From the NCBI GenBank assembly GCA_035714115.1, contig DASTMO010000075.1, positions 10,291-74,290 of the forward strand: a stretch of 64,000 nt of DNA. The letters run 5' to 3'. The DNA is from Alphaproteobacteria bacterium. GTDB taxonomy: Bacteria > Pseudomonadota > Alphaproteobacteria > SMXQ01. The notes beneath the pieces are model-generated. The model saw only the letters and a program-made list of their open reading frames with translations. It was not told where the DNA came from and searched no databases. Shown here one piece after another: positions 7,154 through 22,322 of this stretch. The stretch's first letter is position 1. Every line of letters begins with the position of its first letter. A program made the position numbers and the translations under genes.

Positions 7154-8881
7154 TCAGCGGCGCGCGACGCCTTTGTCGATGGTCACCCCGTAATCGCGCG
7201 TAGCGGCGTCGGCACTAATATAACCGCGATCCAGATCGCGCTGAATGGCCGCGAGATCGCGCTCGGCAGGCGGTCCATAACCGCCGCCGCCGCCCGTCTC
7301 CAGCGTCACGCGGTCGCCCGCTTCGATCTTGAAACCCTTGGCCTTGCAGACGATCTGCGTCTCGCCGGTGGCGCGTTCGACGACGACGCGGCCCGATTGC
7401 GCCTCCTTGCCGCCCTGCGCGCCCCACGGCGGAAACTTGGTGCGGTCAAGGTTGGTCTGCATGAAGCAGCCGGCGATCATCTTGTAGACCTTGCGGAAAC
7501 CGAGACCGCCGCGGAACTTGCCGGCGCCCGCCGAATCGGCGCGCAGCGAAAAGCTCTCGACCCGATAGGGCAGCAGCGATTCCTGCAGCTCGATGGGGAT
7601 CAGGCGCGTATCGCCATGCGCCATGGTGCGGAACGGCCCGGCGCCGTCATGCGTCGCGCAAGCGCCCCAGCCGCCATGGCCGCTGTCGTGGCCGTCGAAA
7701 TTGCGGCCGTCGGGACGGCGGCCGTAGAGGCGAAAGCCGGAATGGGTGCCGAAATGGCCGCCGGTCACGCGCTCGGGGATCGCTTTCTCCAACGTCTTGA
7801 TCACCGCGTCGATCACTGTGGGAAAGGGCATCGAATAATTGCCCATCGGCGCGGTATCTTCGGCGCTCAGGATCTTGCCCGGCGGCAGGATCAATTTCAG
7901 CGGCCTGAACAGGCCTTCGTTGGCCGGCTCATCCGCCGCCACGAGATATTTGAAAGCGACGCGCGCCGTGGTCAGGCCGCCGCCGAAATAGCCGGAATTG
8001 ACGCAGCCTTTGGCCTGCTCGGCGAGGCCGCTGTAGTCGACCGTCATCTCGTCGCCGGCAATGACCACCTTGACACGCACGGGGATCGGCGTGTCGCCCT
8101 CGCCGTCGTTGTCGAGGAAGGTCTCATGTTCGTAGGTGCCGTCCGGCAGCGCGAGGATGCGCGCGCGGGCTGCCGCCTCGGCCTGATCGAGCATGGTCGC
8201 CATGGCGGTGCGGAAGGTCGGCACGCCGTACTTCTCGGCCAATTGCACCACTTGGTCACGTCCCAAGAGACAGCCGGCCAACTGAGCGGATATGTCGCCC
8301 AAGAGCTCGATCGGCATGCGCGTGTTGGTTTCGATGATGCGCATGACTTCTTCGATCGGCTCGCCCTTCGACCAGATCTTCACCGAGCGCAGCTGCAGCC
8401 CTTCCATGAAGATGTCGGTCGAGCGCGGCGCCGAGCCGCCGATGTCAATCCAATGCACGTTGATCGCGAAGAAGCCGATCAATTCACCTTCTGGCGTCCG
8501 GATCGGCGTGTACATGACCGTGTTGTTGAGATGCTGGCCCTGCACGGCGGCATGGTTGCAGACCGCGACGTCGCCATGGAAGAAGCGGTCCTTGCCGTAG
8601 GTCTTCAAACCATCACGCACCGCAGTGCCGACCGAATCGGCGACGAAGGGCGGCATGCCGCCGGTGCATTGCGCGACCAGCTGACCATCGGCGTCGGTGA
8701 TGCCGACGGCGAAGTCCTTGTACTCGTAGATATAAGGGCTGAAGGCCGTGCGCGTGATGTTGGCGTCGATCTGGTTGGAGATCGAGATCAAGCCGTGGCG
8801 GATCACTTCGAGGGTGATCGGATCGAGCTTGTCGGCAAGTTGCGGTTTGGCGAGCTGGTTCATGTCGATCACTTTCCGCAA
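7154..8881 (-). CDS. hyuB: Hydantoinase B / 5-oxoprolinase B-subunit family protein
   Basis: A 575-aa HyuB-family sequence. It overlaps the upstream HyuA gene by 13 nt, the typical hyuA-hyuB arrangement. Confidence 0.85.
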   Translation of the reverse strand: MRKVIDMNQLAKPQLADKLDPITLEVIRHGLISISNQIDANITRTAFSPYIYEYKDFAVGITDADGQLVAQCTGGMPPFVADSVGTAVRDGLKTYGKDRFFHGDVAVCNHAAVQGQHLNNTVMYTPIRTPEGELIGFFAINVHWIDIGGSAPRSTDIFMEGLQLRSVKIWSKGEPIEEVMRIIETNTRMPIELLGDISAQLAGCLLGRDQVVQLAEKYGVPTFRTAMATMLDQAEAAARARILALPDGTYEHETFLDNDGEGDTPIPVRVKVVIAGDEMTVDYSGLAEQAKGCVNSGYFGGGLTTARVAFKYLVAADEPANEGLFRPLKLILPPGKILSAEDTAPMGNYSMPFPTVIDAVIKTLEKAIPERVTGGHFGTHSGFRLYGRRPDGRNFDGHDSGHGGWGACATHDGAGPFRTMAHGDTRLIPIELQESLLPYRVESFSLRADSAGAGKFRGGLGFRKVYKMIAGCFMQTNLDRTKFPPWGAQGGKEAQSGRVVVERATGETQIVCKAKGFKIEAGDRVTLETGGGGGYGPPAERDLAAIQRDLDRGYISADAATRDYGVTIDKGVARR

Positions 8882-10914
8882 AAAATGCGGATCTCCTTGA
8901 GCGGGCCAATCTCAAAACTGTCGGTCGGGCCGACGATGGTGGTCGAGCCGTATTCCTCTAACACCGCCGGGCCTTCGCCTTTGAAGCCGATGGGCAGCGC
9001 GTAGCGGTCGAACACCTTGGCACTGACCATCTTGCCGATGCTGCTGAACCAGACTTGGCGTTCGCCGCCGGCGCTGGCGCCGGCCGAGACGTCCGGCAGC
9101 TTGGCCAGATCGGGCCGACGCTGGCGCGCGAAAGCGGAGAGATGCAGCGCCTGAAATTCCGCGCCGGCCTTGGCGTCGGCGTGGCCGTAACGGCGCTTGT
9201 AGTCGCGCTCGAAGCCGGCGCGCACCTCGGCAACGCTGGAAAGGCCGCTGACCGGCACCTTGATGTTGTGACGCTGCCCGACATAGCGCATCTCGGCGAA
9301 GCGCTCGAAGAAGATATCGGTCGCGCCGAACTCGCGGCCGAGGGCCGCGGCGGCTTCCTTTTCCATCTCGGCGAATATCTTCTCGGCTGAACCGACCGAA
9401 TCGCCGTCCATCAGGCCGGTGAAGGTCTTGGCGAGATCGAGACGCGCGTCGGCCAGCAGCATACCGACAGCGGAGAAATTGCCCGGCGCCGGCGGGATCA
9501 CGACGGTGGGGATCGACAGTTCGTGCGCCAGCGCCGCCGAATGGAGCGGCCCGCCGCCGCCGTAGGCGAAGAGCACGAAGTCGCGCGGATCAAGGCCGTG
9601 CTGAACCGAGACCTGACGGATCGCGCCAGCCATGATGACGGTGGAGATGGCGAGGATGCCGTCGGCCGCGCGCGTCGCGCCGTCCACGCCGGCGTAGCCC
9701 AAAGGCTCGGCGATCTTGCGGATCGCGTTGAGCGCGCCTTCGGTATCGAGCGACAGCTCGCCGCCGAGGAATTTTGCAGGGTTAAGCCGGCCCAGCACCA
9801 GATTGGCGTCGGTGATGGTCGGCTCGGTGCCGCCGCGCCGATAGCAGACCGGACCCGGCGTCGAGCCGGCGCTTTGCGGCCCGACATGCAGGCGGCTTTG
9901 CGAATCGAGCCAGGCGATGGAGCCGCCCCCAGCGCCGACCTCGACGATGTCGATGACCGGAGACTTGATCGGGAAGCCCTTCACGTAGCCGTTGGCGTAA
10001 TAGACCGAATCGACCGAGAAGCGGCCGTTCTCCACCAAGGCGCATTTGGCGGTGGTGCCGCCCATGTCGAAGGCGATGATGTTCTTGAATCCGAGTGCCT
10101 CGCCATAGGCGCCGGCGCCGATACAGCCGCCGATCGGGCCGGATTCGACCAATGCGACCGGGGTGCGGCAGGTGCGGTCGACCGACAGCAGGCCGCCGTT
10201 CGAGCCCATCATGAACAGCGAGCCTTCGAAGCCCTTGCCGCGCAGATCGGCGTCGAGGCTGCGGATGTAGCTGTTCACCTGCGGCCCGACATAGGCGTTG
10301 GCGGCGACGGTCGAGGTGCGCTCGTACTCGTACCACTCGCGCGTCAGTTCGGTCGAATGGGTGACATAGACGCCGGGCAGCAGTTCCTTCAGCCGCGCGG
10401 CGGCCTGCTCCTCATGCGCCGGATTGGCGTAGGAGTTCATGAAAAAAACGGCGACCGATTCGACCTTCTCGCGCTTGATCGTCTCAGCCAGCGCATCCAG
10501 CGCCTTGATGTCGAGCGGCGTCACGGTATTGCCTTGGCTGTCCATGCGCTCGGCCACTTCAAAGCGACGCTCGCGCGGAATGAGCGGCTCATCGCGCTGA
10601 TAGTGCAGATCGAACGGATCGGGGCGATTGCCGCGCGCGATCTCGAGAACATCGCGGAAACCCTGCGTCGTCACCAGCGCAGCCTTGGCGCCCTTGCGCT
10701 GAATGTACGCGTTGATGACCAGCGTGGTGCCGTGATTGAGAAAGGTTGCCTGCTCTGGCGTCAGCTTCGCTTTGTCGAAGCAGTCGAGGATGCCTTTGAC
10801 GAAATCGTCATAGGTCGTCGGGCTTTTGGTGTAGGTGACTTTGCCCGCCTCGTGATCGTAAGCGACGAGATCGGTAAACGTGCCGCCGATATCGACGGCC
10901 ACGACGTAGGACAT
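8869..10914 (-). CDS. hyuA: Hydantoinase A / 5-oxoprolinase A-subunit family protein
   Basis: The N-terminal MSYVVAVDIGGTFTDLV is the ASKHA-fold ATPase signature of HyuA. AGGGAG RBS. 681 aa. Confidence 0.85.
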   Translation of the reverse strand: MSYVVAVDIGGTFTDLVAYDHEAGKVTYTKSPTTYDDFVKGILDCFDKAKLTPEQATFLNHGTTLVINAYIQRKGAKAALVTTQGFRDVLEIARGNRPDPFDLHYQRDEPLIPRERRFEVAERMDSQGNTVTPLDIKALDALAETIKREKVESVAVFFMNSYANPAHEEQAAARLKELLPGVYVTHSTELTREWYEYERTSTVAANAYVGPQVNSYIRSLDADLRGKGFEGSLFMMGSNGGLLSVDRTCRTPVALVESGPIGGCIGAGAYGEALGFKNIIAFDMGGTTAKCALVENGRFSVDSVYYANGYVKGFPIKSPVIDIVEVGAGGGSIAWLDSQSRLHVGPQSAGSTPGPVCYRRGGTEPTITDANLVLGRLNPAKFLGGELSLDTEGALNAIRKIAEPLGYAGVDGATRAADGILAISTVIMAGAIRQVSVQHGLDPRDFVLFAYGGGGPLHSAALAHELSIPTVVIPPAPGNFSAVGMLLADARLDLAKTFTGLMDGDSVGSAEKIFAEMEKEAAAALGREFGATDIFFERFAEMRYVGQRHNIKVPVSGLSSVAEVRAGFERDYKRRYGHADAKAGAEFQALHLSAFARQRRPDLAKLPDVSAGASAGGERQVWFSSIGKMVSAKVFDRYALPIGFKGEGPAVLEEYGSTTIVGPTDSFEIGPLKEIRIFCGK

Positions 10915-11459: not shown

Positions 11460-11566
11460 GGTGCATCTTACGCTACTGCGCCGCGCGGCACACGAGCATC
11501 AAAAAGGCCCGACCCGCAATAGAGCCAGCTCGCGGTATCCACTTATAGATATTTGAATTGCTTGAA

Positions 11567-13432
11567 TTAATTCAGAGATCGAGGCGCTGCAGAGACGGCA
11601 CGAAGACCCACCTGATCGATATGACGCACAAGCCGCTCAACTTCACTGAGCAGTTGCTGCTCGGTAAACGGCTTCGTCAGAACGCCTATCTGCTCATAAG
11701 AGGATGGCAAATTTGCCCGTCCGTAGCCACTGACGAAAATAAACGGCACCTTCGCCCGCGTCAGCGCGGCAGCGACTTCGGTCACCGGCTTGCCGTGCAG
11801 ATTACCGTCCAGCAAAGCGACATCGAACTCGCGGGCCTCAATCATCTGAAGCGCCTGTTCGACCGTGCCGGCGGGACCGACGGCGGTGATTCCCGCATCC
11901 TCCAGCATTGCCTCGATTTCCAAAGCGATCATCGTTTCATCCTCGACGATGAGGACGCGGCACCCACGCAGCTTGCTTTCAGGCTGAGTGATTTCTGATA
12001 GCTGGGCGCTTTGCGGCTCTGGCGCTGGCTGTTTCGACGGTGCCGCGGCGAGCGGCAGCGGCATGATCAGGTCCCAAGCAATGCCGTCGGCACGATAATC
12101 CGCATGAGCCGCGCCACCCTCGGCTTTGGCGCTTTGCTCAATTAAAGTCGTCCCGAATCCGCGGCGCTTCGGCGCCTTCACGCGAGGGCCACCCTTCTCC
12201 AGCCAATTGAGGTGGAGCTGTTCATTCTGAATGCGCCACATCAAAGCCACGGTGCCGTCGGGCGTGGAAAGCGCCCCATACTTAAGCGCATTCGTGCATA
12301 GTTCGTGCAGAATGAGCGCGAGGTGCAAGGCGGTTTCGGGAGCCAGCCACACTTCGGGCCCAACGGCCTCGAAACGCGCAGCATCCACCGCGCCAAGTCT
12401 AAACTGATCTGCAATCAGGTCGCTCAAAGAAGCGCCCTGCCAGGTGGCCTCGCTCAAGAGCGAGTGCGCGCGAGCGAGCGACTGAATTCTTCCAGTAAAG
12501 TTGCGGGTGAAGACTCCTGGGTCCGGAGCGTGACGCAGCGTTTGCGAGGCAATGGCCTGCACCGTCGCCAGCGTGTTTTTGACCCGATGGTTCAGCTCGC
12601 CGATCAATAGCAGCTGCGTTTCCTCAGATCGCCGGCGCTCGCTCACATCCAAAATTTGCGCATTGATCGATACGGAACTGCTGATCGGATCGACCAGGAC
12701 CGAATAGTACCATTCGCACTCGACTGCAGAGCCATCCGCCCGCTTGTTGCGGCAAAGGCGCATATCACGCTCATCGATAAGCGAAGGCTCGGTGACGATA
12801 TCGCGAAGATAAGCAGCATCTCCAACGTCGATCCAATCGCATTCCGCCAGAGACTTTCCAACCATCTCATCGGCGCTCCAGCCAAAGAGACGGCTAGCCC
12901 CGGATGACCAATGGAGAATATTGAGGGCCGCATCGAATTCCACGACCCCGAGCGGCGAATTGTCGCGATGGGCTTCGAGACGGCGAAGCGCGCTCGCCAG
13001 ACTCGAAGAGTTCATGCGCAGTTCATCGCGTTGCGCGGCGAGCTCTTGGCGCTGACTTGCAAGCTCGAAAAACACATCCGCCTTGTTGCGTAGAATGAGC
13101 GGCTCGATGGGCTTTTGAATGAAGTCGACCGCGCCGGCCTCATAACCTCTGAAGCGGCGCTGATTATCCGCGATGCCGGCCGTCACAAAAATAATGGGAA
13201 TGCTTCTGGTGCGCTCATTGCCGCGCATCAACTCTGCGAGTTCAAAACCGTCCAGGCCGGGCATTTGCACGTCGATCAGAGCCAATGCCACTTCGTGCTT
13301 CAAGAGAAGCTCGAGTGCTTCGTCTCCGGAGCGCGCTTTTAGAAGGAGAATATTATCGCGGCGGAGCAGCGCCTCGAGCGACAGAAGATTCTCTTCCAGA
13401 TCGTCGACCAGCAGGAACGATACAGCCCTCAT
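11567..13432 (-). CDS. Hybrid response regulator / PAS / HWE-family (HisKA_2) sensor histidine kinase with a C-terminal receiver
   Basis: Domain order REC-PAS-HWE/HisKA_2-REC: N-terminal REC (LLVDDLEENL...DVQMPGLDGF), coiled coil, PAS, HWE/HisKA_2 H-box (HRVKNTLATVQAIASQT), N-box (HELCTNALKYGAL), and C-terminal REC (VLIVEDETMIALE). The start is set at ATG 13430-13432, which forms an ATGA overlap with the cheB stop. A GGGAGGG RBS lies upstream. Confidence 0.8.
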   Translation of the reverse strand: MRAVSFLLVDDLEENLLSLEALLRRDNILLLKARSGDEALELLLKHEVALALIDVQMPGLDGFELAELMRGNERTRSIPIIFVTAGIADNQRRFRGYEAGAVDFIQKPIEPLILRNKADVFFELASQRQELAAQRDELRMNSSSLASALRRLEAHRDNSPLGVVEFDAALNILHWSSGASRLFGWSADEMVGKSLAECDWIDVGDAAYLRDIVTEPSLIDERDMRLCRNKRADGSAVECEWYYSVLVDPISSSVSINAQILDVSERRRSEETQLLLIGELNHRVKNTLATVQAIASQTLRHAPDPGVFTRNFTGRIQSLARAHSLLSEATWQGASLSDLIADQFRLGAVDAARFEAVGPEVWLAPETALHLALILHELCTNALKYGALSTPDGTVALMWRIQNEQLHLNWLEKGGPRVKAPKRRGFGTTLIEQSAKAEGGAAHADYRADGIAWDLIMPLPLAAAPSKQPAPEPQSAQLSEITQPESKLRGCRVLIVEDETMIALEIEAMLEDAGITAVGPAGTVEQALQMIEAREFDVALLDGNLHGKPVTEVAAALTRAKVPFIFVSGYGRANLPSSYEQIGVLTKPFTEQQLLSEVERLVRHIDQVGLRAVSAAPRSLN

Positions 13433-14004
13433 CTCGCCGTACCCTCCCGAAGGTAATCCGCAATCTCGCTCAGCGACATCACGGCAGCTCCCGGGCATAG
13501 CGCGATCGCCGCCTCCGGCATGGCCGAGGAAAAGGCCTTAAGCGGATCTTGCACCAGAACCACGCCGCCCGCGTCCGTGATCGCGCGCGCGCCCTGGGCA
13601 CCGTCCTGATTGGCCCCAGTCAGAATCACCCCGATTAACCCAGGGCCGTAAACATCCGCCGCGCTTTCGAACAGCACGTCTATCGACGGCCGAGAGAAAA
13701 GCACCGGCTCATCGCTCGAAAGCGAAAGGCTTTCTTCGCTCTCGACGAGCACGTGATAATCGGGAGGGGCAAAATATATTGTGCCGGGCTCGATAGGCTC
13801 TTTGTCTTCGATCTCACGAACGTCGACTTGGCATTTCGCCTGAAAGAGTTCCGCCAGCACGCTGCGTTTGTCCGGCGGGACATGGACGACCACAAACACC
13901 GGCAATTTGAAGTTCGCCGGTAAAGTTGTTAGCACGGCCGACAAGGCTTCGAGAGCGCCGGCAGATGCGCCAATGACGATCGCTTTGGCTTGAGACGCCG
14001 TCAT
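13429..14004 (-). CDS. cheB: CheB-type protein-glutamate methylesterase, catalytic domain only (no receiver domain)
   Basis: MTASQAKAIVIGASAGALEAL...VVVHVPPD...DVLFESAADV covers the Ser, His and Asp regions of CheB_methylest. The ATG overlaps the cheR stop as ATGA. Confidence 0.85.
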   Translation of the reverse strand: MTASQAKAIVIGASAGALEALSAVLTTLPANFKLPVFVVVHVPPDKRSVLAELFQAKCQVDVREIEDKEPIEPGTIYFAPPDYHVLVESEESLSLSSDEPVLFSRPSIDVLFESAADVYGPGLIGVILTGANQDGAQGARAITDAGGVVLVQDPLKAFSSAMPEAAIALCPGAAVMSLSEIADYLREGTAR

Positions 14005-14840
14005 ATGGCGCGCCTCTGATAAATTTTTTCGTCGCGGTCGAAATCCGCAAAGAAATTTGCATGACGAGAAAAGCGCAGGCTTTCCTTTGCGCCGAGCCCC
14101 AAGAACCCCTTTCGCGACAGCGAATCCTTGAATAAGCCGAGCGCCCGATCCTGCAAGCCGCGGTCGAAATAGATCAAAACGTTGCGGCACGAAACAAACT
14201 GCATCTCCGCGAAAACGGCGTCGGTCACCAGACTATGGTCAGAGAACACGACGTTGCGCCGCAGGCTCTTATCGAAGGCCGCGCGCCCATATGCGGCTTG
14301 GTAATAGTCCGACAAAGAGGATTTACCGCCGGATTTGCGGTGGTTTTCGGTGAACAGCTGCATGCGTTCCAGAGCGAAAATCCCGGATTCCGCAGCGTGA
14401 AGAGCATCCTGATTGATGTCGGTCGCATAGAAAATCGTGCGCTCCTCGATGCCCTCCTCGCGAAAGAGAATGACCATCGAATATAACTCTTCGCCGCCGC
14501 TGCAGCCGGCAATCCAGACTTTGAGCGACGGGTAAGTCCGCAAATGCGGCACCAGCTTTTCACGAATGACGCGAAAGTAGCCAGGATCGCGGAACATCTC
14601 GCTGACCTGAACCGTCAGATAGCCCAACAGCCGTGGCAGCATGGAAGGCTCATGTAGCAGACGGTCCTGCAAGGCGGAGATCGTCGCAAAACCCAACTGA
14701 TCGCGCGCCTGACGAAGACGGCGCTTGATGGACGCCATCGCGTAATTGCGAAAATCGTAATGATATTTCAGGTACAGCGCCTCCAAGAGGAGCCGTATTT
14801 CGATATCTTCGATTTTCTCCGGCGCCGCATCGTCCGTCAT
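14001..14840 (-). CDS. cheR: CheR-type protein-glutamate O-methyltransferase
   Basis: CheR N-terminal helical region and SAM-dependent methyltransferase domain (VWIAGCSGGEELYSMVIL...NVLIYF). ATGA overlaps at both ends. Confidence 0.85.
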   Translation of the reverse strand: MTDDAAPEKIEDIEIRLLLEALYLKYHYDFRNYAMASIKRRLRQARDQLGFATISALQDRLLHEPSMLPRLLGYLTVQVSEMFRDPGYFRVIREKLVPHLRTYPSLKVWIAGCSGGEELYSMVILFREEGIEERTIFYATDINQDALHAAESGIFALERMQLFTENHRKSGGKSSLSDYYQAAYGRAAFDKSLRRNVVFSDHSLVTDAVFAEMQFVSCRNVLIYFDRGLQDRALGLFKDSLSRKGFLGLGAKESLRFSRHANFFADFDRDEKIYQRRAI

Positions 14841-17800
14841 CGCGGCATCCAGACACGCACAAGCGACAGGAGCTTTTCGACATCCAGCGGCTTCGCCATG
14901 TAATCGTTGGCACCGGCATCGATACAGCGCTGCTGATCGTCGGGCATAGCCTTAGCTGTCAGGGTGATGACCGGCAGCTTCTTCAAAAGGGGATTCTTGC
15001 GGATTTCCCTGGTTGCGGTGAGACCATCCATCACTGGCATCATCACGTCCATCAGCACCAGATCGATGGCCGCATTGGGGTCTTTCGCCGACTGCTCAAG
15101 GACGGTCAAAGCTTCCTGGCCGTTGCGCGCGATTTGGACGACCGCTCCGCGAGGCTCGAGAATATTTGTTAAGGCGTAAACGTTCCGGATGTCGTCCTCG
15201 ACCACCAGAATTCGCCGGCCTTCCAGCAAAGCATCCCGGCTTCTCGCCTTACGGATCATGCGTTGATGCTCATCCGGCAGCTTCGATACCACCTGATGCA
15301 GGAAGAGACTGACCTCGTCCAACAATCGCTCCGGGGACTTCGCGCCTTTGATGATGATCGATTTGGAATAGCGGCGCAGCCGCTGCTCGTCATCGGCGGA
15401 AAGCTCTCTGCCGGTGTAAACGATGACCGGCGGGAAGGAGTGGGGCCCACCTTCGCTCAGCGTTTCGAGCAAGGAATAGCCTGAGGCATCCGGCAACGAC
15501 AGATCCAGGACCATGCAATCGAACGTCTCTTCTTTGAGATGTGCGAGGCACTCAGCCGCCGTGCCAACCGTGACTGCCTCAACCTCATGGGACGTCAAAA
15601 GCTTGGCCACCGCTTCTCGCTGAACGATGTCGTCTTCGACGATGAGGATACGCCGCACCCGCTGCGATAATCGATCATTGAGCCTGGTCAGCACATCGAC
15701 CAGCTGCTCGCGTTTGACGGGCTTCAGCTCATAGCCGATCGCGCCGAGCGAAAGCGCCGTTTCGGCCTGATCGCTCGCCGACACGACATGGATGGGGATA
15801 TGGCGCGTTTTGACGTCTTGCTTCAGCCGATCCAGCACCGACAAGCCGGATTGATCAGGCAAGCCCACGTCGAGAACGATCGCATTGGGCATATAATGTT
15901 GGGCGAGGTTCAAAGCCTCTTCGGCCGTACCGGCGACGAGCGATTTGAAACCCATTTCGCGCGAAAGATCGCGCAGGATGGTCGCGAAGCTGTCGTCATC
16001 CTCAACGACCAAGAGCACGCGCTTAGAGCCGGCTTGCTCGGCACGATCGTCTTCGACTTTACGGATGCGGCCCGGCAGGGCCGGCTGCGGCGTTTCCACC
16101 TTGGGCCCGGATGGCGCCGGCATGCTCTTTTGAGCATTGCGCGCCACGACCTTGGCCGGGTCGTAGGACACCGGAACCGTAATCGTGAAGGTGCTGCCTT
16201 TTCCCAGTTCGCTATCGAGGTTGAAATCGCCGCCTAACAGGCGAACCAGCTGACGTGAGATAGACAGTCCCAGGCCGGTGCCGCCGTATTTTCGGCTGAT
16301 CGTGCTGTCCGCCTGATGGAAGGCTTCAAAGACATGACTTTGCTGGCCTTCAGCAATGCCGATGCCCGTGTCGGAGACCGCAAAGGAAATGCGCTCGTCG
16401 CTCGCCCGGCGAATCGACAAGCTGACTTTGCCCGTCTCGGTGAATTTGAAGGCATTGGACAAAAGATTTTTAAGAACCTGCTCGAGCCGCAGCGGATCGG
16501 TGTCCATGAGTGGCGGGCATTCAGGCTCGATCTGGACGACGAACTGCAACTTTTTCTGCTGAGCGACGGGCTGGAAGAGCTGGCGCAAATTGCCCGCCAA
16601 CCGCTCGACGGCAACCGATTCAGGTTTGATGTCCACATGGCCGGCCTCGATCTTGGAAAGATCGAGGATGTCGTTGATGAGCGTCAGCAGATCGTTGCCG
16701 GACGATTGAATCGTTTGAGCATATTTGACTTGCTCGGCTGTCAGATTGTCGTCCGGATTGTCGGCGAGAAGCTTGGCGAGAATCAACGAGGAATTCAGCG
16801 GCGTGCGCAATTCGTGCGACATGTTCGCCAAGAAGTCCGATTTATATTGGCTTGCCTGCTCTAACTCCCGGGCTTTGAGCTGCACCGAGATGTTGGCTCG
16901 CTCCAGATCGTCCTTCTGCAATTCGAGCTGCTGAGTTTGCTCTTCCAGCTGGGAATTCGTCTGCTCAAGCTCGGCCTGCTGTTGCTCAAGCCGCGCTTGC
17001 GATTCCTTAAGCGCGCGACCTTGCTCTTCCAGCTCTTCGTTGGACACGCGGAGCTCTTCACTTTGCGTTTGCAGTTCTTCCGATTGACGTTGGGTTTCTT
17101 CCAAGAGGTTCTGCAGTTCGCTGCGATAGTTGGCCGAGCGCATGGCGATCGCCACCGGGGCGGATGCCTCGTCCAACAGGGCGAGCATGCTTTCATCGAC
17201 CGGCCCTAAGAAACCCAGCTCGATGACGGAAGTGACCGCGCCATCGACGCTATTGGGGACAATCGCAAGATGCCTCGGCTTGTCGCTCCCCAATGCCGAA
17301 CCGAAGGCGATGTATCCGTCGGGAATTTCGCTGATCACTCTCGGGCGATTTTCCGCAGCCGCCTGCCCCAGCAAGCCGCCTCGCAGGTGGAATTTTGCCG
17401 GAACGTTCGCGGTCTCCGGCACTCCATATGTGGAGGCGCGCCGGAAGGTCTCACCGGCGCCGATGAAAAGCGCGCCGGCAACGGCCCCAAGATAGCGCGC
17501 CAAGAATTCGAGAATATTATTCCCGAGCTGCTCGATAGATTGATCGCCGGCCATCGCGGCCGCCAATTCAATCTGCCCCTTTTGCAGCCACTCCTCGCGC
17601 CGGCGCGCCAATGTCGCCCTTCGGGTCAGGAAGCCGATCGTTGCCGTGAGGAAGATGCCCAACAATCCAGAAAGCAAACCGCTGGCAAGCGCTGTCGCTT
17701 GCGCTTCTTTCATTTCCGCTAAGCGTTTGACGCGAGTGCTGGTCTCTTCTTGAGCCACTGCATCGAGCTGCGCTCGAATGGCGTCCATTTCCGCTTTGCC

Positions 17801-18268
17801 GCGATCGGAATTGACGATCGCCAGCGCCGCTTCAAAACCTTGCGTGCGGCGTATTTCGATTGTCTGCGTGAGCTCCCGAAGTTTGGCGGCCACATGCGTT
17901 CTCAATGCGGCGATTCTCGGCGTTTGAGCTGCGTTATCGCCGGTCAGTTCGGCAATCTTGTCGAGTTTGGAGGGAATGTTCTCCAAAGCCTCGCTGTACG
18001 GCTGAAGATACGCCTCGTTGTTCGTCAGCAGAAAACCGCGTTGTCCCGTCTCCGCATCTTGCGTGCTGGACAACAGCTCATCGAGCGCGACGATCACGGT
18101 ATGCGTGCGGACGACCTTCTCATTGCCCTCGCGCAAAGCTTCGAGGTTGAAATAGGCGACCGTGCCGCTAACGATAAAAAAGACCAGAGCGCCCGCTAGA
18201 CCTAGCGAGACAACAGGATCCAGCCCCAGTTTGCGCACTGAACTCTGTGGCATCGCGCTCTTTTGCAT
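14837..18268 (-). CDS. Hybrid sensor histidine kinase: TM, CHASE3 periplasmic sensor, TM, GAF, EELQ-repeat coiled coil, HisKA, HATPase_c, three receiver domains
   Basis: 1143 aa. Two TM helices flank a CHASE3 signature (ETGQRGFLLTNNEAYLQPY). H-box SHELRTPLNS. G-boxes. Three REC domains (VLLVVEDDDSF.., ILIVEDDIVQ.., ILVVEDDIRN..). Confidence 0.9.
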   Translation of the reverse strand: MQKSAMPQSSVRKLGLDPVVSLGLAGALVFFIVSGTVAYFNLEALREGNEKVVRTHTVIVALDELLSSTQDAETGQRGFLLTNNEAYLQPYSEALENIPSKLDKIAELTGDNAAQTPRIAALRTHVAAKLRELTQTIEIRRTQGFEAALAIVNSDRGKAEMDAIRAQLDAVAQEETSTRVKRLAEMKEAQATALASGLLSGLLGIFLTATIGFLTRRATLARRREEWLQKGQIELAAAMAGDQSIEQLGNNILEFLARYLGAVAGALFIGAGETFRRASTYGVPETANVPAKFHLRGGLLGQAAAENRPRVISEIPDGYIAFGSALGSDKPRHLAIVPNSVDGAVTSVIELGFLGPVDESMLALLDEASAPVAIAMRSANYRSELQNLLEETQRQSEELQTQSEELRVSNEELEEQGRALKESQARLEQQQAELEQTNSQLEEQTQQLELQKDDLERANISVQLKARELEQASQYKSDFLANMSHELRTPLNSSLILAKLLADNPDDNLTAEQVKYAQTIQSSGNDLLTLINDILDLSKIEAGHVDIKPESVAVERLAGNLRQLFQPVAQQKKLQFVVQIEPECPPLMDTDPLRLEQVLKNLLSNAFKFTETGKVSLSIRRASDERISFAVSDTGIGIAEGQQSHVFEAFHQADSTISRKYGGTGLGLSISRQLVRLLGGDFNLDSELGKGSTFTITVPVSYDPAKVVARNAQKSMPAPSGPKVETPQPALPGRIRKVEDDRAEQAGSKRVLLVVEDDDSFATILRDLSREMGFKSLVAGTAEEALNLAQHYMPNAIVLDVGLPDQSGLSVLDRLKQDVKTRHIPIHVVSASDQAETALSLGAIGYELKPVKREQLVDVLTRLNDRLSQRVRRILIVEDDIVQREAVAKLLTSHEVEAVTVGTAAECLAHLKEETFDCMVLDLSLPDASGYSLLETLSEGGPHSFPPVIVYTGRELSADDEQRLRRYSKSIIIKGAKSPERLLDEVSLFLHQVVSKLPDEHQRMIRKARSRDALLEGRRILVVEDDIRNVYALTNILEPRGAVVQIARNGQEALTVLEQSAKDPNAAIDLVLMDVMMPVMDGLTATREIRKNPLLKKLPVITLTAKAMPDDQQRCIDAGANDYMAKPLDVEKLLSLVRVWMPR
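16852..17122 (-). repeat. Low-complexity coding repeat encoding a Glu/Gln-rich heptad coiled coil (SEELQTQSEELRVSNEELEEQ...LEEQTQQLELQ)
   Basis: gagctg/cagctg/ctcttc motifs recur in the DNA. The translation is a roughly 90-residue EELQ-type repeat between the GAF and HisKA domains of the CHASE3 kinase. Confidence 0.7.

Positions 18269-20112: not shown

Positions 20113-22322
<2,210 letters not shown>

Follow-up and report, generated by a model that had tools for sequence, protein, structure and literature searches.

The kinase operon and its surroundings

In this study we analysed a stretch of 64,000 nucleotides from the genome of an alphaproteobacterium (assembly GCA_035714115.1, contig DASTMO010000075.1, positions 10,291 to 74,290), which we call the window. 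It carries a four-gene operon that is headed by a hybrid sensor histidine kinase and that also encodes a CheR-type methyltransferase and a CheB-type methylesterase. Our subject is a long, Glu-rich coiled coil inside the kinase, which probably is a methyl-accepting segment on which the two neighbouring enzymes might act. All features of the operon lie on the minus strand.

The kinase gene (14837..18268) is an open reading frame whose translation of 1143 residues contains, in this order, CHASE3, a transmembrane segment, GAF, the coiled coil, HisKA, HATPase_c and three REC domains. Pfam places the periplasmic CHASE3 sensor domain (PF05227, E = 1.8e-40) at residues 49-184 (17717..18124) and the GAF domain (matched as GAF_2/GAF) at residues 243-376 (17141..17542). 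Behind the coil follow HisKA, the dimerization and histidine phosphotransfer (DHp) domain, at residues 476-543 (16640..16843), with an invariant H-box and the phospho-accepting His485 at 16814-16816, and the catalytic HATPase_c domain at residues 591-700 (16169..16498). Three stretches of Response_reg similarity at about residues 747-1143 (14840..16030) make up the REC part. According to the register analysis and an AlphaFold2 model the coil itself covers residues 382-472 (16853..17125) with 13 heptads. A preliminary description of this DNA had already proposed a heptad coiled coil at residues 383-472 (16853..17122), between GAF and the H-box, and both the coil and its position were borne out. 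The peptide quoted there, SEELQTQSEELRVSNEELEEQGRALKESQARLEQQQAELEQTNSQLEEQTQQLELQ, corresponds to residues 396-451, and the most conserved core of the coil, LEETQRQSEELQTQSEELRVSNEELEEQGRALKESQARLEQQQAELEQTNSQLEEQ, to residues 389-444 (16937..17104).

Downstream of the kinase lie genes for a predicted CheR-type glutamate O-methyltransferase of 279 residues (14001..14840; Pfam CheR_N and CheR), for a CheB of 191 residues that consists of the methylesterase domain (CheB_methylest) and has no receiver domain (13429..14004), and, as fourth gene, for a histidine kinase with the Pfam architecture REC-PAS-HWE histidine kinase-REC (11567..13432). Stop and start codons overlap as ATGA at all three junctions, namely kinase/CheR at 14837-14840, CheR/CheB at 14001-14004 and CheB/HWE kinase at 13429-13432. 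From these overlaps the kinase is predicted to be co-transcribed and translationally coupled with CheR and the receiver-less CheB; the coupling suggested earlier for the two enzymes thus extends to the fourth gene. The longest reading frame of that gene begins at 13498, 66 bases further upstream and inside CheB, and the ATG at 13432, part of the overlap with the stop codon of CheB, is the more likely start. A weak terminator-like hairpin is located just 3' of the last gene (11509..11528); a consensus scan finds as many of these sites in the region as are expected from shuffled sequence.

Housekeeping or metabolic genes enclose the operon, which stands isolated among them: downstream lie hydantoinase/oxoprolinase A and B (7154-10914, minus strand), upstream obg and proB on the opposite strand (20134-22322, plus strand). 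Among the flanking genes that were scanned there is no chemotaxis or flagellar gene near the operon and no CheA-like gene was seen, no probe being aimed at CheA. No MCP (methyl-accepting chemotaxis protein) signalling domain was found in the 64-kb window with a probe that was validated by matches in 4 of 80 related loci. In 76 of these 80 loci no MCP is encoded within 10 kb, and in the other 4 one is present. An E. coli CheW probe gave no match anywhere, hence this negative has no positive control. The kinase ends in ...LSLVRVWMPR, and a C-terminal pentapeptide of the NWETF type, the tether for CheR and CheB in some MCPs, is absent from this end.

Heptads, geometry and conservation of the coiled coil

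One heptad register runs unbroken through residues 382-472, with Leu at d and the polar residues Ser, Asn, Gln or Thr at a. A strongly hydrophobic residue, nearly always Leu, occurs 12 times in this register compared to a mean of 4.6 in shuffled sequences, and none of 20,000 shuffles reached this number (heptad periodicity, p < 5e-5). Three EEL triplets stand in phase (p about 0.0008 in shuffles), in the successive heptads SEELQTQ/SEELRVS/NEELEEQ. In contrast to this periodicity, the abundance of Glu-Glu and Glu-Gln pairs that had first drawn attention to the segment is not exceptional. The coil is literally packed with such pairs, but this follows from its content of 43% Glu plus Gln: 14 [EQ][EQ] dipeptides were observed versus 16.5 expected, and 6 EE dipeptides versus 4.7 expected (p = 0.30). 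Pfam finds only faint, non-specific coiled-coil matches in the coil; the match to PF28019 (HmpF) in the Pfam columns is one of these and was dismissed.

For residues 231-548 we obtained an AlphaFold2 monomer model from 91 homologous fragments, with a mean predicted local distance difference test score (pLDDT) of 88.9 and with thin coverage of the GAF domain in the alignment. The model contains the GAF fold followed by one continuous helix of 145 residues (359-503). This helix begins as the last helix of GAF, spans the coil at a pLDDT of 96-98 and ends as DHp helix 1, which bears His485; a loop and DHp helix 2 come after it. No hairpin is seen in the modelled part. Gly417 was considered as an MCP-like hairpin turn and rejected, because the helix is straight in the model and 49% of relatives have Ser there. 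No solved structure covers the GAF-coil region by sequence. Asn at a positions favours a parallel, in-register coiled-coil dimer. Hence Asn410 and Asn438, which both occupy a, suggest that the coil is a parallel two-stranded dimer, and this fits a homodimeric kinase.

The core of the coil is repetitive, its unit being 28 residues or four heptads long and reading QQEELRVSNEELEEQxRALKESQxxLEx. In the window protein a full copy lies at about residues 402-429 and a degenerate one at 430-457, and the distant relatives L083 and L086 have three good units and correspondingly longer coils. Of 220 unique sequences, 200 have a spacing of 75 residues between Asn410 and the phospho-accepting His. Spacings of 54, 68, 82 and 110 also occur, and together with 75 these all equal 5 modulo 7 and account for 217 of the 220; only three sequences, with a spacing of 76, leave this phase. 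Coil length thus changes among relatives by -21, -7, +7 or +35 residues, that is by whole heptads, so that the EE face keeps a constant angle around the helix axis with respect to the His.

No other part of the kinase is conserved as well as the coil. When species-representative genomes were scanned with the window CheR, 399 relatives were found, and the best 80 loci were analysed. They belong mostly to Alphaproteobacteria, mainly Rhizobiales, Caulobacterales, Sphingomonadales and Acetobacteraceae, together with a few gamma- and betaproteobacterial or oddly binned metagenome-assembled genomes. In all 79 loci that reach across the kinase the coil is its most conserved segment, and in 75 of the 79 it leads all eight operon segments. 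Median identity amounts to 82% in the coil, compared to 52% in CHASE3, 53% in GAF, 69% in the kinase core, 73% in REC, 77% in CheR and 62% in CheB. Not a single insertion or deletion was found in the coil of these 79 orthologues, and its ungapped identity across alphaproteobacterial orders is 75-94%. Complete operons with a CheR 72-76% identical to that of the window also occur in metagenome-assembled genomes labelled Patescibacteria, Rickettsiales and Micavibrio (L072, L049 and L057); of these labels, Patescibacteria above all seems to result from wrong binning.

Using the 100-residue coil alone as query, a HMMER search returned 1093 representatives (clustered at 50% identity) at E <= 0.001 and 243 at E <= 1e-10. 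Among the best 150 matches, the members of at least 600 residues share the coil-HisKA core behind varied N-termini, nearly all with a preceding GAF domain. CHASE3 is variable in the family, and relatives have dCache, HAMP or nothing in its place. Two matches (P0203 and P0242) show coil and HisKA only, with no GAF match, P0242 starting at the edge of a 2.6-kb contig. Two fragments that are 69-79% identical to coil plus HisKA are deposited as fungal hypothetical proteins (P0039 and P0058; Rhizopus arrhizus and Friedmanniomyces endolithicus) and are most likely bacterial contamination in the assemblies. Residues 383-861 align to the NCBIfam equivalog of HrmK, a cyanobacterial hybrid kinase, with 387 bits, below the cut-off of 725, and HrmK may have a related coil upstream of its HisKA.

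Which residues are conserved was determined by column in 104 representatives clustered at 50% identity. Asn410 is conserved in 100% and Asn438 lies within 98-100%. At the b, c, e and g positions the mean entropy is 0.8-1.4 bits in the core (residues 389-444), whereas it is 1.6-2.8 bits in residues 445-472. Three Glu pairs at heptad positions b-c stand out as candidate methyl-accepting sites: Glu397-Glu398 (17075..17080; 91% and 91% conserved), Glu404-Glu405 (17054..17059; 100% and 97%) and Glu411-Glu412, which follows the invariant Asn410 (17033..17038; 97% and 98%). Conserved Glx residues at c are also present at 391, 433 and 440. The solvent-facing EE pairs are conserved as strongly as the H-box. 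Since a mere structural coiled coil should conserve a and d rather than its outer face, this conservation of the surface is notable.

Linkage to CheR and CheB and relation to known systems

If the coil were a substrate of CheR and CheB, one would expect all three to travel together, and the co-occurrence anticipated in the preliminary description was indeed found. In the best 80 of the 399 CheR loci, a full kinase precedes CheR in all 79 that reach far enough and CheB follows CheR in all 80. The whole order of CHASE3-GAF-coil-HK-REC kinase, CheR, CheB and HWE kinase is kept in 79 of 79, and a match to the fourth gene follows CheB in 79 of 80, the remaining locus (L045) ending inside CheB. In metagenomes, 80 loci were found by scanning with an alignment of the coil alone, and counts were restricted to those with enough downstream DNA: CheR follows the coil in 54 of 55 and CheB in 51 of 53, always 2.0-2.3 kb downstream. 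These genome and metagenome counts describe coil-bearing kinases and have no comparison set of coil-less GAF kinases. Of the relatives with a dCache-GAF, HAMP-GAF or GAF-only N-terminus, five have usable flanks, and in four of these CheR follows the kinase. Their fourth gene is of the type REC-HK, REC-HK-REC or REC-PAS-GGDEF, and the GAF-coil-HK core is constant. As the architecture of the fourth gene varies in this way, a short coil between its REC and PAS domains, considered as an alternative substrate, was rejected as the conserved partner.

Both enzymes look catalytically competent as judged from their motifs. CheB aligns to Salmonella CheB (1A2O) and keeps the triad Ser164, His190 and Asp286. 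For CheR the best solved match is B. subtilis CheR (5FTW, 91 bits). The N-terminal domain of the window CheR includes the basic segment KRRLRQAR; in Salmonella CheR, it is the corresponding helix that contacts the acidic methylation helix. In alignments to solved CheR structures the window CheR keeps the Arg of the FRD motif and the Tyr of the IYF motif, which correspond to R98 and Y235 of Salmonella CheR, two residues highlighted in an earlier study (PMC5907407).

Proteins that combine CheB, CheR and a kinase in one chain are known, and the preliminary description had pointed to NEELQ-type repeats in them. A first query, made from a consensus for CheB-CheR fusion proteins, led to real fragments that carry PAS_10 and of which 12 among those listed are labelled 'CheB/CheR fusion protein'. 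We then joined window CheB, window CheR and one such coil fragment in a chimeric query, which yielded 94 full-length proteins of ~1040 residues with the arrangement CheB (6-168), CheR (209-465), coil (636-717), PAS and HWE_HK. They represent the class MAC1 (KEGG K13924, 'two-component system, chemotaxis family, CheB/CheR fusion protein'), and the repeat is indeed present in them: their coils consist of five to six copies of a NEELQSx heptad. With the window coil they have in common a polar residue at a, Glu-Glu at b-c and Leu at d, repeated in phase as [S/N]-E-E-L-x-x-x, and the association with CheB, CheR and a histidine kinase. The window coil matches 89 of the 94 MAC1 coils with weak similarity (about 19 bits), and hhalign aligns the two coil families with a probability of 82% (E = 1e-5; reversed control 24%). 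For two coils that are both repetitive this is suggestive of a common origin. The window CheR scores a median of 107 bits against MAC1 CheR domains, above any solved chemotaxis CheR; for CheB the relation is opposite, with 74 bits against MAC1 and 101 bits against solved CheB. MAC1 proteins differ from the window system in that their CheB and CheR precede the coil in one polypeptide, whereas the window enzymes are separate open reading frames, and in that their more regular coil lies between the CheR part and PAS, whereas the window coil runs directly into the DHp domain.

Several further observations concern these fusions. The fourth gene of the window operon and the MAC1 proteins (P0384 and others) both encode HWE-type kinases. 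Some proteins of ~365-500 residues (P0376-P0383, P0387-P0388 and others) match CheB_methylest and CheR, with 45-72% identity to the window enzymes; in these, CheB and CheR appear to be fused to each other without a kinase, and some of them could be gene-calling artefacts across an ATGA overlap. In L169/L170 (6001-8277) and L168 (3968-6260) we found frameshift-split genes of the type NEELQ-coil-PAS_10-PAS-HisKA that are named CheB/CheR fusion by JGI. No CheB or CheR was detectable upstream of them, and they were therefore rejected as examples of the fusion; they may be truncated MAC1 derivatives. The genes in L169/L170 are preceded by one for a SNF2-family helicase, and transposase genes of the IS66 family are found a few kb off.

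MAC2 is the class in which the window kinase finds its place. The MAC class is defined in the literature (PMC6943060; bioRxiv 10.1101/2022.05.07.491037), and MAC2, due to Wuichet and Zhulin (2010), is included in MiST 3/4 as profile HMMs. According to the 2022 preprint, MAC proteins unite receptor and kinase, MAC1 incorporating CheB and CheR and MAC2 being associated with them, and MAC proteins are described there as experimentally uncharacterised (bioRxiv 10.1101/2022.05.07.491037). Like MAC2, the window kinase joins sensor, coiled coil and histidine kinase in one polypeptide, is adjoined by stand-alone CheR and CheB genes with no MCP in the cluster, and has a coil for which a role as methyl acceptor is proposed. 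Judged by secondary descriptions of MAC2 we see no difference in kind; the kinase looks like an ordinary member, and we are highly confident that it belongs to this class. The methyl-accepting idea is therefore a rediscovery of the published MAC2 prediction of 2010 and not a new system.

Counterparts of the kinase in Pseudomonas are CfcA of P. putida (PP_3761, cfcABCDE) and BmsA of P. alkylphenolica. Here too a CHASE3/GAF hybrid kinase heads a cluster with CheR, CheB and another kinase, and the phospho-accepting His is found at a similar position (H496 in CfcA versus H485 in the window). Two CfcA peptides that are encoded by primers (ESARYRQ and ANMS(H>A)EL, PMC4951495) fit the family motifs at the coil start and at the H-box; this comparison covers the two peptides. 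Activity of the diguanylate cyclase CfcR depends on H496 of CfcA (Pseudomonas cfc literature), and CheR and CheB of the P. putida cluster were reported not to be involved in chemotaxis (PMC4951495). The Pseudomonas cluster differs from ours in having five genes and in signalling through CfcA to CfcR (cyclic di-GMP, biofilm), whereas the window operon has four genes in an alphaproteobacterial-type context and ends in an HWE kinase.

With MCPs the window kinase shares helical, Glu-rich segments, Glx pairs at heptad b-c and the pairing with CheR and CheB. Methylation site 3 of Tsr, which we take to be M-E-Q-L-T-A-T, would have the same b-c placement as S-E-E-L-Q-T-Q of the window. Different from MCPs are the lack of an MCPsignal domain, of the methylation consensus, of the hairpin four-helix bundle, of CheW/CheA coupling and of the C-terminal pentapeptide, and the presence of the kinase in the same polypeptide as the coil. 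Likewise, S-helix linkers share with the coil a continuous helix from a cytoplasmic sensor domain to DHp helix 1, a preserved register and insertions or deletions of whole heptads. Linkers of this type are about 40 residues long; the window coil differs in its ~90 residues, its near-invariant exposed residues and its tie to the presence of CheR and CheB.

A probable methyl-accepting coil and its alternatives

Taken together, we consider it probable that the segment serves as methyl-accepting coiled coil in a kinase of the MAC2 class and that CheR and CheB modify it in a way that tunes the kinase. In this model CheR would methylate the second Glu of each pair, at position c (E398, E405 and E412, possibly also E391 and E433), and CheB would demethylate the same residues. 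Q440 might become a methyl acceptor after deamidation; it is a candidate deamidation site because the paralogous repeat unit has Glu at that place. Neutralisation of charge might alter the stability or packing of the polar-core coiled coil and thereby shift the equilibrium between kinase on and off states. As such it could provide adaptation or gain control for signals that enter via CHASE3 and GAF, with the output passing via the kinase's three REC domains and the REC-PAS-HWE kinase of the operon. We also lean, somewhat more cautiously, towards a more specific version, in which CheR and CheB act on a parallel two-stranded coil inside a histidine kinase and recognise a code, [S/Q/N]-E-E-L in a 28-residue unit, that is unrelated to the MCP consensus. 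The CheB of this version would not be controlled by phosphorylation, methylation would tune the kinase directly, and the heptad phase locked to the His would be the coupling device.

Several observations weigh against a methyl-accepting role. The literature that we found, to which key subscription papers do not belong, holds no direct evidence of methylation of these kinases. In residues 376-492 there is no strict match to the MCP methylation consensus [AS]-x-x-[EQ]-[EQ]-x-x-A-[ST], and neither the relaxed form [ASTG]2-x2-[EQ]2-x2-[ASTG]2 nor half-sites are matched. The coil and HisKA fragment has no similarity to Pfam MCPsignal (PF00015), even at E up to 10. E/Q interchange is common at methylation sites of MCPs, and at the EE pairs of the coil exchange of Glu for Gln is rare (1-4% in the 104 representatives). 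An antiparallel four-helix bundle is the known geometry on which CheR and CheB act, and what the model shows instead is one uninterrupted helix, presumably part of a parallel dimer. As the CheB is receiver-less, the classical phosphorylation feedback is missing, and any feedback would have to come from conformation-dependent availability of the substrate or from the REC-rich partners. Two kinases (L083, the protein P0222, and L160) have neither CheR nor CheB within 6-8 kb and largely keep their EEL motifs, and two more (L082, the protein P0241, and L131) have CheR and no CheB nearby. Finally, the strong conservation of the surface could also reflect another binding partner. Of the arguments with which the coil was originally proposed as a CheR/CheB substrate, pair density and likeness to the MCP consensus thus fail. 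In part the proposal is supported: a lack of enrichment near CheR and CheB genes, which would have refuted it, is clearly not what the loci show, and the EE pairs are conserved.

One alternative is that the coil is a mere signalling helix of the S-helix kind that connects GAF to DHp, and that CheR and CheB modify chemoreceptors elsewhere or the REC-PAS-HWE kinase. The continuity of the helix into DHp and the strictly kept heptad phase are what one would expect of a mechanical linker, and the absent MCP consensus as well as the two family members without CheR and CheB nearby would fit too. However, a mechanical coil needs a and d only, whereas here b, c, e and g are near-invariant and the coil is conserved above the catalytic core. 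The alternative targets do not fit well either: MCP genes are unlinked, the fourth gene varies in architecture while the GAF-coil-HK core is constant, and the orthologous CheR and CheB of P. putida were reported to have no part in chemotaxis (PMC4951495). We therefore regard a pure linker as unlikely. It might also be possible that the acidic face is a docking surface for CheR and CheB, for the kinase's own REC domains or for the REC-HWE kinase, with any methylation taking place elsewhere or with enzymes that regulate by binding alone. Extreme surface conservation would suit any obligate protein-protein interface, and the rarity of E/Q interchange at the EE pairs is in line with this, but CheR and CheB have complete catalytic motifs. 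Moreover, the MAC1 proteins, in which the coil and both enzymes form one covalent chain, have the same EEL heptads, and docking would not be needed there. In our register the Glu pairs also stand at b-c, where MCPs such as Tsr have their methylation sites. We find docking improbable for these reasons.

The simplest explanation, that the pattern is a compositional accident of a low-complexity stretch rich in Glu, Gln and Leu, has in its favour that the coil shows no excess of [EQ][EQ] or EE pairs over shuffled sequences and that Pfam coiled-coil matches are faint and non-specific. Against it stand the heptad periodicity, the 75-94% ungapped identity across alphaproteobacterial orders, the column conservation, and the coil-only search, in which the long members of the best 150 share the coil-HisKA core. 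We regard this explanation as refuted and give it practically no weight.

In conclusion, what our analysis adds to the papers that we found is the conservation of individual sites, the 28-residue unit, the heptad phase locked to the His and the failure of the MCP consensus. The family is large (1093 coil representatives and 399 CheR relatives) and the prediction for it has been standing since 2010. The map of candidate sites (E398, E405 and E412, possibly E391, E433 and Q440) makes this prediction directly testable. If it were true, adaptation by reversible methylation of glutamate would not be confined to chemoreceptor arrays, but would also operate inside ordinary two-component kinases that serve lifestyle decisions, as exemplified by cyclic di-GMP and biofilm in Pseudomonas.

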